A stretch of DNA of 64,000 nt from the IMG/VR virus record IMGVR_UViG_3300032224_000591, positions 103,757-167,756 of that record; one strand, given 5' to 3'. This document shows positions 4,112 to 14,348 of the stretch, piece by piece. The notes under the pieces were generated by a model. The model did not search any database, was not told the DNA's origin, and saw only the letters and a list, made by a program, of their open reading frames with translations. The translations under genes were made by a program, and so were the position numbers. The first letter of the stretch is position 1. Each line of letters opens with the position of its first letter. This DNA comes from a virus.

Positions 4112-4360
4112 ATGACGAATAAGACCGCAGCTCTTGTCGAAGCCTTTAAGTCCGGCAAGGAGCTCACCGCTGATCAGATCGCCTCTAAGTATGGCCTCGT
4201 CAACCCGACCGCTTCGGTCACTGCGTTGCGCAAGGCAGGCTATCCGATCTATCTGAATACTCGCAAGGGTGTTTCCAAGTATCGCCTTGGTACTCCTACG
4301 CGTAAGATGATCGCCGCTGGTTATGCTGCGCTTGGCGCACAGGCCGCTGGCCTCGTCTGA
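4112..4360 (+). CDS. Winged helix-turn-helix DNA-binding protein
   Basis: ELTADQIASKYGL.NPTASVTALRKAGYPI; own early promoter at 4037. Confidence 0.75.
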   Translation: MTNKTAALVEAFKSGKELTADQIASKYGLVNPTASVTALRKAGYPIYLNTRKGVSKYRLGTPTRKMIAAGYAALGAQAAGLV

Positions 4361-4408
4361 AAATAATTTCGCTGGAGCGGGTTTATTGCTCGCTCCAGTG
4401 CATAAATA

Positions 4409-4805
4409 GGTCGCTGTTTGAAATTGTTAATGGACGCTTCGGCGTCCACTTTAGTCTGCGCCACTTGTTGTCGCATTCTAATGTGGACTTGAAGTGTCTC
4501 TTCATGGATATACAGAGCGACGCAAGATACCTTAGTGGTTGTCGGCATAACATGCGATCTTGGTAGTGTTATGTACTGTAGGCATACAGGCTGTATATCT
4601 TTGTAGAGACAACTTATTAGGTGTGGTGTTATGGAAAACTCCAGTGTTCCTGGATAGCGCACAGTCAATGGGTCCACTGTCTGCAGGCACGGCCAATACT
4701 GAGTTGTAACTGAAAATTGGGGTTGCTCCCATGCATAAGGTTACAGAGTAAAGCGAACGGTATGGCGGTCTATCCATATCCATAACATGACATCACTCCT
4801 AATAG
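4409..4805 (+). ncRNA. Putative ~400-nt structured ncRNA, unclassified
   Basis: Follows late-type CATAAATA (4401); no credible ORF; C(UUCG)G hairpin 4431-4448 and several long-range helices. Confidence 0.6.
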
Positions 4806-4810
4806 GTTAA

Positions 4811-4885
4811 TGGCGCATAGCTCAGTGGTAGAGCACTGTCCTGATAAGACAGGGGTCGATGGATCGTAACCATCTGTGCCAACCA
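4811..4885 (+). tRNA. tRNA-Ile(GAT), atypical T loop
   Basis: Cloverleaf, loop CT-GAT-AA, encoded CCA. Confidence 0.9.
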
Positions 4886-5035
4886 GAGTGTGGTTGCTGG
4901 TGACTCGTTGTGGAACCAGCAAACTTATCAATAGTAGTGGTTCGAAACGCTGCTATCTGAGAATACACCGGTGCGCTACGTACTCGGCGAAACACCAAAA
5001 GGGTGGGGTAAGAGCCCCAATGAGTATGGAAATTC

Positions 5036-5111
5036 GGACCGTTAGCTCAGCTGGTAGAGCAGGAGACTCTTAATCTCTTTGTCGTAGGTTCGATCCCTAC
5101 ACGGTTCACCA
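5036..5111 (+). tRNA. tRNA-Lys(CTT)
   Basis: Cloverleaf, CCA. Confidence 0.95.
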
Positions 5112-5197: not shown

Positions 5198-5423
5198 AGT
5201 TCAGGACTAACAGAGGAAGCAAATGGTTACCCTCTGTGAATGACAATAAGATGCTGGGAAACCCGATAAATCCAACCATGGAGTGCATCTAGTCAAGATT
5301 CTGAAACAGTGTGTGGTTACTGGTGACACTCCTAAGCTGTAGGAACCTTACTAACTATAGAGTCGCGTACGGGATGGTGTGGCTTGGCGAGGCCTGTGTA
5401 CACAACATCATCCCAACTAATTC

Positions 5424-5499
<76 letters not shown>

Positions 5500-5601
5500 A
5501 AGGCAAATAGCATCAGGTTCCAACCTGATCCAAGGGATTCGCGAGTCCCTGCTCAACGGTTGTCAGTGACGATGGGTGCTATCGGAACTGTCAAAGTTTA
5601 T

Positions 5602-5676
5602 CGCGGAGTGGAGAAGCAGAATCTCGTTTGGCTCATACCCAAAAGATCGTCGGTGCAATTCCGACCTCCGCAACCA
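5602..5676 (+). tRNA. tRNA-fMet(CAT), initiator type
   Basis: C1xA72 mismatch, anticodon CAT, CCA. Confidence 0.85.
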
Positions 5677-5698
5677 ATATAGAAGACAGGAGATTGAT

Positions 5699-5998
5699 AT
5701 GCTTAAAGTTGTAGTAGTAGCTACGGTGAGTGCAATTGCACTTGCTGGTTGTACAGCACGAGAGCAACAGCTGCTTGCAGCGGGCGCCGTAGGTGCAGTT
5801 GCTGGTGCGGTTGTTGCTAGCGAGGTGTCTCAGCCTCGTCCATACTATGTGCAGGAACGCCCATATTATGTACAGCCCCGTCCTGCATATTATGAAGAGC
5901 GTCGCCCAATCTATGTGCAACCTCATCGTCGTCCTCAATGTTTCTCCACATGGGAAAACACCCATCGTGGTATGGTAGAACGTCGCGTCTGCCGTTAA
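5699..5998 (+). CDS. Small lipoprotein with glycine zipper and Y/P/R-rich repeats
   Basis: Lipobox LAGC, GAVGAVAGAVV, repeated RPYYVQ; AGGAG RBS. Confidence 0.8.
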   Translation: MLKVVVVATVSAIALAGCTAREQQLLAAGAVGAVAGAVVASEVSQPRPYYVQERPYYVQPRPAYYEERRPIYVQPHRRPQCFSTWENTHRGMVERRVCR

Positions 5999-6486: not shown

Positions 6487-7434
6487 ATGAAACCTATTGC
6501 AGTATTTTGTAAAGATCCTGAACTATCTGTCTATTGGACTCTTACAGATTTCTGTAATTTTAGTTGTAACTACTGTCCAGCTTTTCTTCATAGTGGCGAA
6601 TATCATAAAGGTATATCCAAGGGTTTTCCAACAGATGAACAGATAATTTCTTTTGTTGATAAATTAGAAGAGTTGTCTAAAACTAGAAAGCTTGAGGTTA
6701 CACTAAGCGGTGGAGAGCCTACTCTTCATCCTATGTTACCCTATATCATAGATAGACTACGGGGCAAATGCATATTATGCATAACATCTAATGGTTCAAG
6801 AGGAAATAACTTTTGGAACACAATTCTTCCTGTGTCTACTGTTCAATTATCTCTTCATCCAGAGTTTACAAAAGCTAATAAAATCAATAGTCTCTCTAGA
6901 GTTATTATTGATAGTGGCACTGTTCTGAGATATAATTTATCATGTGATCCCAATAACTGGGAAAAAGTATTAGCTCTATATGATTCTATAGATGATGAGT
7001 TTAAACCTTTTATTACCCCAAGAGTTCTACAACATTGGGGTACTCAATCTGATGTAAAGCGTATATCTCTAACATATAGTCAAGAGCAATCTGCTTGGAT
7101 TAAAGAGACGTTATTTAAGCATAGGCCATTGAATCCAGTAAACAAGTCTGATTATAAGATGTTTTTCTCTGATGGTTCATCTATATCAGCCCATAAAATG
7201 GGTGTTATAATAGTGAATGAATGGAATGATTTCAAAGGATGGAAATGTTATGCTGGGTCACAATCTATCAATGCAACCTATTCAGGTGATGTGTTTGCTG
7301 GAGTGTGTGGATCAAAATTTCTAGGTAAGATTGATAATTTCGAATTATTCAATGATCACATTATTTGTGAGAGACACCGATGTGTCTGTCTACCAGATAT
7401 TAGAGCTAACAAACAATTAATCATTCCGGAATAG
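6487..7434 (+). CDS. Radical SAM protein with C-terminal Cys-rich (SPASM/twitch-like) domain
   Basis: CNFSCNYC, SGGEPT, C-terminal C.AG...C...C...C.C; stop codon lies inside tRNA-Gln. Confidence 0.9.
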   Translation: MKPIAVFCKDPELSVYWTLTDFCNFSCNYCPAFLHSGEYHKGISKGFPTDEQIISFVDKLEELSKTRKLEVTLSGGEPTLHPMLPYIIDRLRGKCILCITSNGSRGNNFWNTILPVSTVQLSLHPEFTKANKINSLSRVIIDSGTVLRYNLSCDPNNWEKVLALYDSIDDEFKPFITPRVLQHWGTQSDVKRISLTYSQEQSAWIKETLFKHRPLNPVNKSDYKMFFSDGSSISAHKMGVIIVNEWNDFKGWKCYAGSQSINATYSGDVFAGVCGSKFLGKIDNFELFNDHIICERHRCVCLPDIRANKQLIIPE

Positions 7435-8787: not shown

Positions 8788-8863
8788 GCTGTCTTAGTGT
8801 AACTGGTAAGCACGTGAGATTGTGAATCTCGAGGTTTTGGTTCGAACCCAGAAGGCAGTACCA
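8788..8863 (+). tRNA. tRNA-His(GTG), alphaproteobacterial type
   Basis: G1:U72, A73, no encoded G-1, CCA. Confidence 0.92.
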
Positions 8864-8875
8864 TATAAATATGGC

Positions 8876-9523
8876 ATGAGGACAATTGCGCTATTCATCG
8901 ACGAGTCGTCTGACGCCGCCGCAGAGTGTGGCGATGGAATAGTTGAAGCCCTATCTCCTCATTTTCATATCAAAAGATTCACCGAGGAAGAGTGTACTGC
9001 ATCCACATTCAAGGGTGTGGATATGATTGCTTTTCCCGGTGGCGTTGGTGAGTCGGAAGACTATAACTATTTCTTTCGTCGAAAGAGAGAGATGGCTGTA
9101 GTCGAGTACCTTGCCAACGGTGGTAGTTATCTAGGAATCTGTGTCGGCGCTTATTGGGCCGGCTCGCATTATTTTGATGTACTTGATGGAGTGGATGCTG
9201 TACAATACATAAAGCGTCCAACAGCAGACATAAAACGAAGCTACAATAAAGCTATCCCAGTCACATGGAATAGCAAACCTGAGCGGATGTTTTTTAGAGA
9301 TGGCTGTGCCTTCATAGGAGATCAAACGAAGTTCGAAACTGTCGCTCGCTATGCAAATGGCGATCCGATGGCAATCATACAGGGCAAGATTGGCCTGATA
9401 GGTGCTTGTCCTGATTCATTACGTTCATGGTACATAGAACCATACAACAAACCATTTTGGCATGATGGTGCACATCATCAGTTGCTACTAGAGTTCGTAA
9501 ACAAAGTTGGAGCTTTCGTCTAG
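8876..9523 (+). CDS. Class I glutamine-amidotransferase-like (BPL-N type) protein
   Basis: MIAFPGG, GGSYLGICVGAY nucleophile elbow; late promoter TATAAATA at 8864; stop inside tRNA-Glu. Confidence 0.8.
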   Translation: MRTIALFIDESSDAAAECGDGIVEALSPHFHIKRFTEEECTASTFKGVDMIAFPGGVGESEDYNYFFRRKREMAVVEYLANGGSYLGICVGAYWAGSHYFDVLDGVDAVQYIKRPTADIKRSYNKAIPVTWNSKPERMFFRDGCAFIGDQTKFETVARYANGDPMAIIQGKIGLIGACPDSLRSWYIEPYNKPFWHDGAHHQLLLEFVNKVGAFV

Positions 9524-10279: not shown

Positions 10280-10858
10280 ATGCAATTCATGAACTTATGG
10301 GCAACTCCTGTTGCCATCTTTCAAAATAGAGACTATAGAGATATTAACGCTGAGATCCTTAAGCACGAGGAACTTAGGGGTTGCACGTTTCTTAATAAGA
10401 AGGATGTGTGGGACTATAGAGATACTGTCCCAGCCTTACAAACACTATATGATTGGATGCTGGAATGCACGGCCAAGTACGCTGAAGAGTGTTTTGGTAT
10501 GGAGTATACGCCAGAGATTTTCTATCATGGCCATGGTTCAATGAACTTTCGTGGCAAGGGTGAAGAGGCACTTCTGCATACTCATCGCCTCACTACTGTG
10601 GTGATGACGTATTATATCGACGTCCATGACAATTGCGGCGACATCAGACTCCTAGACCCCAGGAGCACGCTAGGTTGGATCAGCCGTAATGACGGCAGAC
10701 CTTATAATCAGTACACACATAGTCCTAACAATGGTGAGCTTATCATGTTCCCTGGTTGGGTTACACATATGGTTGCTCAGAACCAAACTGACAAGGAGCG
10801 TGTCGCTCTTACGTCAAACGTATATCTTAAGGATGAGCACAAGGATAAAGTGTACTGA
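10280..10858 (+). CDS. Putative 2OG-Fe(II) oxygenase (TIGR02466-like)
   Basis: HTH...YY..., GDIRLLDPR, GELIMFPGW.TH.V..N....RV. Confidence 0.85.
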   Translation: MQFMNLWATPVAIFQNRDYRDINAEILKHEELRGCTFLNKKDVWDYRDTVPALQTLYDWMLECTAKYAEECFGMEYTPEIFYHGHGSMNFRGKGEEALLHTHRLTTVVMTYYIDVHDNCGDIRLLDPRSTLGWISRNDGRPYNQYTHSPNNGELIMFPGWVTHMVAQNQTDKERVALTSNVYLKDEHKDKVY

Positions 10859-11343
10859 TGGATAGATTCTATGTAATTGACGATGTCTTTGACGAGCGTA
10901 TTCGCCTCAAGATTCGTGACTTTGAATATGGTCCTGCATCACCACAGAAGTGGTATGACTTGGGTTCTAATCCAGATCATGAGAAGATCTTTGACATTGC
11001 GGTCGAGCTTGGGTTTGGATTTATTCATGGCGCCGGTATCATTGGCTATGAGATGTGGTGCAACACCAGGGCTGTTGGTTGGCATTACGATCATGATGAG
11101 GTAGCCTCGCGTGAGGCTGGTAAGCTCATCACTCCTATCTTTGCTGCTGTATACTATGCCGAGGTGGCAAACCTAGAGGGTGGTGACCTAGTGACAGAGT
11201 CACATCGTATCACACCAAAGACTAATCGTCTTGTCATCATGAGCGGTGGTTTGAAGCATGCTGTGTATCCGTATGCAGGTACACGTAAGGCCATCACAAT
11301 CAATCCATGGGATCATAAAATAATCAATGCGGGTGTGGTATAA
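10858..11343 (+). CDS. 2OG-Fe(II) oxygenase (prolyl-hydroxylase-like)
   Basis: WHYD, GGDL, PKTNRLV, H.V....G.R; stop inside tRNA-Gly. Confidence 0.85.
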   Translation: MDRFYVIDDVFDERIRLKIRDFEYGPASPQKWYDLGSNPDHEKIFDIAVELGFGFIHGAGIIGYEMWCNTRAVGWHYDHDEVASREAGKLITPIFAAVYYAEVANLEGGDLVTESHRITPKTNRLVIMSGGLKHAVYPYAGTRKAITINPWDHKIINAGVV

Positions 11344-14340: not shown

Positions 14341-14348
14341 TATAAATA
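14341..14348 (+). promoter_or_regulatory. T4-type late promoter TATAAATA
   Basis: Exact copies also at 605, 8864, 20216, 29603, 42368, 61784; variants at 4401, 12152, 29757, 33176, 37241. Confidence 0.85.

Follow-up and report, generated by a model that had tools for sequence, protein, structure and literature searches.

Two structured RNA genes, one of them a cassette with exchangeable cargo, behind a boxA-like block at the head of a phage tRNA array

What is encoded in about 400 nt that carry no gene, directly ahead of a long tRNA array, in an otherwise compact phage genome? Phage tRNA arrays are usually read as devices for codon supply or against nucleases, with their spacers being ignored. 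The locus raising this question lies in a complete IMG/VR virus record of 167,756 bp with direct terminal repeats, the last 64 kb of which were analyzed as a whole and are referred to as the window. With a DNA polymerase sharing about 47% identity with the enzymes of T4-like cyanomyoviruses, the record can be assigned to an uncultured T4-like phage. The tRNA array, predicted by both ARAGORN and Rfam, comprises 31 genes which are all located on the plus strand, and the gene-free stretch reaches from the stop codon of a winged-helix (wHTH) ORF (4358–4360) to the first of these tRNAs at 4811 (Table 1). Besides the wHTH protein, a radical SAM enzyme and 2OG oxygenases are encoded by the neighboring ORFs.

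For this stretch, an earlier note had proposed a structured RNA, either a new large phage ncRNA or a string of three smaller ones. The absence of a gene, which was part of this proposal, is borne out, as the stretch is bounded by the ORF stop and tRNA-Ile, the longest frames on the plus strand are only 30–49 aa without any credible ORF among them, and no frame stays open throughout the homologues of 4611–4810. Likewise, the postulated structure is real. The minimum free energy (MFE) of 4405–4810 amounts to −140.7 kcal/mol compared to −114.5 ± 6.0 kcal/mol for shuffled sequences (z = −4.35), and the check for covariation in homologues that had been suggested reveals base pairing maintained well above the level of shuffles in two units, designated D2 and D3.

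Relatives of the locus were retrieved via the flanking ORF, and the parts were compared locus by locus. L002, having a flanking ORF 99% identical to that of the window, shows D1 and D2 without D3, the same two parts are found in L003, L008 possesses D2 and D3, and in L149, L150, and L177 D3 occurs alone between two tRNAs. Since the parts are separate in relatives, the stretch represents a string of independent parts and not one 400-nt molecule. Hence, of the two possibilities offered before, the string of smaller RNAs is retained and the single large RNA is abandoned. In the window, D2 and D3 abut without spacer, A4611 being the last nucleotide of the former and A4612 the first of the latter, and long-range helices between the domains were not found. 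Both are structured RNA genes not described previously, and D2 is a swappable cassette.

Table 1. Features at the head of the tRNA array, given in positions of the window.
Feature	Position	Strand	Details
82-aa winged-helix (wHTH) ORF	4112–4360	+	weak HTH_39 match
Hairpin after 82-aa ORF stop	4372–4398	+	8-bp stem 4372–4379/4391–4398, no U-tract
CATAAATA, T4-type late-promoter-like box	4401–4408	+	kept in L002, L318, L003
boxA-like block GCTGTTTGAAATTG	4413–4426	+	identical to boxes ahead of 16S rRNA
D1, lineage-specific leader hairpins	4431–4494	+	only in window, L318, L002, L003
D2 unit	4495–4611	+	stalk 4495–4515/4591–4611; cargo 4516–4590
D3	4612–4807	+	P1 4612–4633/4786–4807; ends 3 nt before tRNA-Ile
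tRNA-Ile(GAU), array's first tRNA	4811–4885	+	ARAGORN, Rfam

The D2 unit consists of a stalk of 21 positions, interrupted by U·U mismatches at 4502·4604 and 4505·4601, and an enclosed cargo of 75 nt folding into three hairpins. With this duplex being formed by the flanking sequences, the stalk has the length expected for RNase III processing stalks (at least about 20 bp). A search with a 5'-arm pattern followed by an arm-pair filter retrieved units of 78–197 nt from many T4-like contigs, resulting in a family which, read in the sense of the tRNAs, comprises 48 distinct units and about 20 unrelated cargo classes. Each run of these units consists of one to four members and occupies the head of a tRNA array, with spacers of 1–9 nt between neighboring units and toward the first tRNA, and exactly one unit is present in the 168-kb phage genome. 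Among the 48 units, stalk positions 1–11 are near-constant, position 5 alternating between C-G and U-A and position 9 being either U·U or U-A, and position 12 is a pyrimidine-pyrimidine mismatch in all but two. Positions 13–22, on the other hand, covary, as 98.1% are paired versus 74.5 ± 1.5% when the 3' arms are shuffled (maximum of 1000 shuffles, 80.2%). Moreover, G·U outnumbers A·C by 85 to 10 on the tRNA strand, with the ratio reversed on the other strand, so the selected structure is an RNA of tRNA sense. A small protein encoded by the stretch was considered as well and rejected, not only for lack of a conserved frame but also because the AUG in the 5' arm of D2 is not kept (position 12 being U or C).

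The cargo is replaced between closely related loci. Contig L318 from a metagenome matches the window at about 99% identity on both sides of the cargo, on one side over the ORF end and D1 and reaching into the 5' arm, on the other over the 3' arm and D3 and reaching into tRNA-Ile, while the approximately 75 nt between the arms are unrelated to the cargo of the window; L002 holds a third cargo. Conversely, L174 and L187 contain a cargo 95% identical to that of the window next to a flanking ORF of no more than about 45% identity, and their basal stalk shows compensated changes. Among 45 locus pairs with D3 sequences at least 94.6% identical, only three have their cargo in common. As cargo differs between near-identical loci in this way, the slot is far more variable than its surroundings. 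The largest cargo class possesses conserved motifs and covariation of its own, and some cargos of relatives carry T-arm-like sequences such as GGTTCGAATCC. In one cargo class, the 13-nt motif CAUUGUUGUCAAG flanks an internal loop on both sides (L100, 6252–6327; L101, 7869–7960; L097, 361–481), a pair which may represent a symmetric site for protein binding or dimerization.

D3 represents a new family of structured RNAs of about 196 nt. While a 16-nt exact pattern led to one contig only, a gapped pattern of two invariant blocks found the homologues, amounting to 31 distinct full-length members from IMG/VR, metagenomes and one MAG contig. Folding of a 17-sequence alignment with RNAalifold, with which a larger alignment agrees, resulted in a consensus of 57 pairs in nine helices, with 98% of cells paired and a closing stalk set on a multi-helix junction. 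Compensatory changes are present in 37 of the 57 pairs, versus 9.8 ± 2.3 in shuffles (none of 500 reaching the observed value) and 3–10 when partners are slid. The closing stalk P1 consists of 21 bp and one bulge and therefore has the length of an RNase III-type stalk (at least about 20 bp). Invariant nucleotides number about 65 and are in many cases unpaired, as in GGAAAA, CAAUGGGU, CCAAUAC, AAAGC.AAC, and AUAAC. D3 is always found on the tRNA strand, 0–3 nt before a tRNA which is most often tRNA-Lys(UUU). The MAG member, L238, is a 5,029-bp contig of a betaproteobacterial MAG (Umea3 bin) encoding promoter, boxA, stalk unit, D3, and eight tRNAs; it is the one real D3 match among the genome-contig matches listed, which are mostly due to chance, and looks like a phage fragment misbinned into the MAG.

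Against this comparative background, four of the seven helices drawn in the earlier note are retained. Helix 4615/4798 is the base of P1 in D3 and has comparative support, helix 4705/4740 shows compensatory changes in five of its seven pairs, and hairpin 4431–4448 is present with one compensatory pair in L003. The fourth, hairpin 4576–4589, is part of the MFE structure, its four homologues being near-identical. Helix 4627/4779 had been drawn in the wrong register, as covariation favors pairing of 4623–4633 with 4786–4796. The remaining two give way to the D2 stalk: 4537/4608 is displaced by its 21 bp, and 4410/4516, which overlaps the boxA block, is gone in L318 despite identical flanks around the other cargo. 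Overlooked at that time were the boxA-like block, the constant stalk itself and the swapping of cargo.

The region upstream of D2 differs between the window and most of its relatives. The hairpin following the 82-aa ORF has its positional counterpart, in most relatives, in a true intrinsic terminator composed of GGCGGGA...TCCCGCC and a subsequent T-run. The CATAAATA box that had been noticed just before the stretch is indeed present, and by its sequence it would function as a late promoter. ATAAATA is found 16 times on the plus strand of the window and twice on the minus strand, often 20–35 nt ahead of start codons. In the segment 14341–14586, where a TATAAATA box beside tRNA-Lys had been reported, ATAAATA is confirmed at 14342. 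Most other relatives possess a strong sigma-70-type promoter (TTGACT-17-TATACT) instead of CATAAATA; behind a terminator, its −10 element ends 8–21 nt before the boxA-like block (also in L238), placing the block within the 5' leader RNA in these phages. In the window, L002 and L318, in contrast, a hairpin without U-tract is followed by CATAAATA ending only 4 nt before the block. A late transcript would consequently start at or inside boxA, and an intact boxA RNA may here require read-through from upstream.

The block itself occurs in the window as a single exact plus-strand copy, and in 27 distinct contexts its consensus is GYTGTTTGAMA, located 18–33 nt ahead of the first stalk, or 66–79 nt where the D1 hairpins are inserted. 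When 301 sampled Pseudomonadota genomes were screened for copies of the block lying 50–450 nt ahead of the universal 16S 5' primer site, 16 genomes gave matches, in each rrn copy located, compared to none with the reversed control. The matching boxes, identical 14- to 17-mers, are positioned 230–390 nt upstream of 16S rRNA. The exact 14-mer of the window sits upstream of 16S in two genomes (G082 and G170), and in two others (G034 and G054) the corresponding boxes are 17- to 18-mers of phage relatives; a match that can be named is the alphaproteobacterium Sphingorhabdus profundilacus. Compared to the published boxA consensus GYTCTTTAANA (PMC5725501), the phage block agrees at 9 of 11 positions, this consensus being gamma-proteobacterial. 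Positions 4 and 8 deviate from the E. coli-type consensus, position 4 being one of two positions jointly mutated in a construct that abolished boxA function (PMC5725501). By analogy, the block is proposed to be a loading site for the antitermination complex of host NusB/NusE. A literature search for boxA in phage tRNA operons, or for such cassettes, did not return any paper.

Between block and first stalk, relatives outside the small D1 group have a short hairpin in place of D1. In the window, hairpin 4431–4448 and a longer hairpin, 4436–4495, are mutually exclusive, the longer one also being conserved in L003. In five other loci (L103, L110, L114, L008, and L184), the terminal part of the 3' arm is repeated as GAGAYAAC or GAAACAA just upstream of the first 5' arm, and this leader copy can pair with the first 7–8 nt of the latter, in some loci with a UUCG loop. 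Formation of such a leader hairpin would be at the expense of the stalk base.

In bacterial rrn operons, a long duplex around the 16S rRNA accompanies boxA, and the D2 stalk was compared with it. In operon L352, the processing stalk arises from base pairing between the 16S trailer and a leader strand located 6 nt downstream of boxA. The leader strand has an 11- to 12-mer in common with phage 3' arms and the trailer strand a 10-mer in common with phage 5' arms, which was reached by 3 and 8 of 500 shuffles, respectively. Phage and L352 stalk duplexes are therefore alike with their strands swapped relative to the enclosed RNA. This exact match was found in one of three operons examined, as no exact match of at least 8 nt exists in the sphingomonad-type operon L353, which is close by eye, or in the third operon. 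P1 of D3 shares k-mers with two host rrn operons only at chance level. In sequence, the duplex of the D2 stalk is similar to a 16S processing stalk of an alphaproteobacterial type. The near-constancy of the basal 11 bp of D2 exceeds what RNase III is known to need and could mark a sequence-specific protein instead.

Several further observations concern the array and its relatives. The ORFs for the radical SAM enzyme (6487–7434), a BPL_N/GATase-like protein (8822–9523), and a 2OG oxygenase (10858–11343) each terminate inside the following tRNA gene, i.e., tRNA-Gln, tRNA-Glu, and tRNA-Gly, with overlaps at 7425–7434, 9509–9523, and 11329–11343, respectively. Another in-array ORF of 140 aa (5576–5998) encodes a hydrophobic segment and PRPYYVQ-like repeats; as it overlaps with tRNA-Met (5602–5676), its true start is probably later. 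The long inter-tRNA spacers at 4886–5035, 5198–5423, and 5793–5807 have the 15-nt motif GTGTGGTTGCTGGTG in common, the copies of which are 87–93% identical, and may contain more small RNAs. In related phages, a tRNA with anticodon UCA, assigned by ARAGORN to tRNA-SeC, is encoded a few genes downstream of D3 (L187, 7963–8040; L174, 5194–5271; L141, 3807–3882; L238, 3474–3551), possibly representing an opal suppressor.

Searches for known RNAs were negative. Covariance models of Rfam 15, as had been recommended for checking, gave only tRNAs and two chance matches when run with cmscan on the window (gathering thresholds) and on 4340–5040 (E ≤ 10), hence no known family, and only tRNAs on 17 related loci, nine of which were also empty at E ≤ 1. 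In agreement with the earlier failure to recognize them, tmRNA, RNase P RNA and group I intron gave neither an Rfam match nor, for tmRNA, an ARAGORN call. Blastn of the whole stretch, D2, D3, and the class-139 unit against 50,697 GenBank phage records found no real match, and in the T4 tRNA region harboring rnaC and rnaD, nhmmer profiles of D3 and the largest cargo class gave nothing with matches of E ≤ 10 admitted. Accordingly, D2 and D3 are real new RNA families, in which known principles are newly arranged; a published catalogue of about 8,500 candidate RNAs from IMG/VR (29–151 nt) could contain pieces of both. Genes for Ro/TROVE, RtcB, RNase III, and dsRBD proteins were not found in this phage, so host enzymes would be needed for processing. 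For the 82-aa wHTH protein as a dedicated RNA partner, genome context speaks neither way, since its ORF is syntenic in the clade but also present in many phages without these RNAs.

Taken together, we assign a probability of about two in three to the stretch being the leader of a tRNA operon built like that of an rRNA operon, combining Nus/boxA antitermination with stalk-closed RNAs cut from the precursor. The structures, their strand and modularity, the identity of the block with rrn-leader boxes and the cargo swapping are established by the sequence comparisons, and transcription, Nus binding and cleavage toward stable, functional RNAs are proposed to take the following course. The transcript would start at the CATAAATA late-type box or read through from upstream, bringing the boxA signal near its 5' end. 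In analogy to rrn operons and lambda nut, boxA would load host NusB/NusE and then NusA, NusG, and SuhB onto RNA polymerase, and the complex thus loaded would confer Rho resistance on transcription of the long, untranslated array. Of the two RNA genes following, each would be closed by its flanks pairing into a stalk of 21–22 bp, D2 with a clade-constant stalk around the exchangeable 75-nt cargo and D3 as a conserved multi-helix RNA. Both would be cut out by RNase III-type cleavage of the stalks plus RNase P at the next tRNA, the cut at the 5' end of tRNA-Ile fixing the 3' boundary of D3, and the RNAs thus released, small and with paired ends, would be long-lived and act in trans. Our best guess at their function, guided solely by the hypervariable cargo and the tRNA-like cargos of some relatives, is host takeover or counter-defense.

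Other readings have to be weighed against this one. The terminal stem formed from 5' and 3' ends, with its near-invariant basal 11 bp and fixed pyrimidine-pyrimidine mismatch, recalls the handle by which an RNA-binding protein of host or phage might hold a Y-RNA-like RNP, the cargo acting as effector as in YrlA. Bacterial Y RNAs are modular and mimic tRNA, to which the T-arm-like sequences in cargos of some relatives would correspond. A TROVE gene, however, is missing not only in the phage but also in five related records, the YrlA motif GNCGAAN0-1G, expected near the 5' end, is absent from 4495–4530, Y RNA and YrlA models of Rfam did not match even at E ≤ 10 (4340–5040) or E ≤ 1 (nine relatives), and the stalk sits after a boxA block and resembles the rrn processing stalk, making such an RNP an unlikely solution. 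Quite improbable, in our view, is also a leader acting purely in cis, i.e., attenuator- or riboswitch-like control of read-through into the array without any RNA released in trans. The promoter-proximal position would suit it, as would the terminator-like hairpin 4431–4448, which excludes the longer alternative also conserved in L003, and the leader copy of the 3' arm that can pair with the 5' arm in relatives. Against it, D3 also occurs between tRNAs far from promoters (L149, L150, and L177), D2 units are found in tandem runs of up to four, and a hypervariable cargo is ill-suited to a ligand sensor.

The exactness with which cargo is exchanged between conserved arms in near-identical genomes, the arms forming an imperfect inverted repeat of about 21 bp, might also point to a DNA-level element, with mobile-element ends or a recombination site in which RNA structure is incidental. 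From DNA symmetry, however, the excess of 85 G·U over 10 A·C is not expected, the distal half of the stalk covaries freely, cargos show covariation of their own, and the units are restricted to array heads, in one orientation and 1–9 nt apart. The dispersed copies and the associated transposase or integrase that mark a MITE or integron-like cassette are absent, there being a single copy in the 168-kb genome and no such gene nearby, and swapping by ordinary homologous recombination at the arms is compatible with the rrn-like leader, rendering the DNA element highly improbable. Finally, phage tRNA genes are known to have large ornate RNAs as neighbors, and one GOLLD/ROOL-type molecule of about 400 nt, as had been considered in the earlier note, would be in line with domains abutting without spacers and with the favorable folding of the whole stretch (z = −4.35). 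But the modules are independent and found separately in relatives, helices connecting the domains are lacking, that between 4410 and 4516 is not conserved, and the Rfam models of GOLLD and ROOL did not match. A single RNA is already contradicted by the distribution of its parts and thus largely refuted, leaving it barely credible.

Returning to the rrn-like leader, a further-reaching proposal is possible, although we regard it as rather doubtful: the clade might have copied the host rrn leader, i.e., boxA plus 16S-type stalk, as a portable cassette for expression and processing, its slot being used in an arms race for decoy or mimic RNAs, some of them tRNA-like, directed against defenses or translation, while D3 might be a new class of ribozyme or RNP RNA traveling with tRNA arrays. 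If true, whatever small RNA is inserted between the constant arms would escape termination during its transcription and then be excised and stabilized. The D2 unit is a natural RNA cassette, whose hypervariability among near-identical phages is typical of loci of host-phage conflict, and the stalk may be of use where defined small RNAs are to be expressed in bacteria. A host-type antitermination signal would provide a testable answer to how an untranslated transcript of several kilobases escapes Rho. Independent of this, the array head carries two RNA families under strong selection which are absent from Rfam. As a larger set of comparable RNAs, they open up a fresh approach to species 1 and 2 of T4, whose annotation does not go beyond that of small stable RNAs.

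Among known systems, the bacterial rrn leader shows the same order of promoter, boxA and long duplex formed from the flanks of a structured RNA, with an identical boxA block, a stalk sharing 10- to 12-mers and tRNAs downstream in the same transcript. In contrast to it, the phage leader heads a tRNA array instead of rRNA and encloses RNAs of 75–196 nt, the strands of its stalk are swapped, the stalk is constant while the cargo is exchanged, and neither boxB nor boxC has been identified. GOLLD and ROOL are likewise structured non-coding RNAs adjoining phage tRNA genes, but the RNAs found here are much smaller, form independent modules and lack an Rfam match. With the YrlA Y RNAs, D2 shares a terminal stem with a conserved irregularity and a modular, sometimes tRNA-like interior, while differing in the missing Ro/TROVE partner, GNCGAA motif and model match. 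In lambda nut, boxA in the phage transcript recruits host Nus factors for processive antitermination (PMC2724277); here, too, boxA would reside in a phage transcript, albeit without an evident boxB hairpin or N protein, as an rrn-type box and with a non-coding transcript being protected. The T4 species 1 and 2 RNAs (rnaC and rnaD) are small RNAs on the tRNA strand of a tRNA cluster, with neighbors 1–6 nt apart, and are presumably released by tRNA-type processing. They are located at the 3' end of the T4 cluster and not at its head, show no sequence similarity and lack a constant stalk, and rnaC has a T-arm, unlike D2 and D3 of the window. Functionally, rrn leaders, the boxA of lambda nut and the T4 species 1 and 2 RNAs are the closest relatives of this leader.
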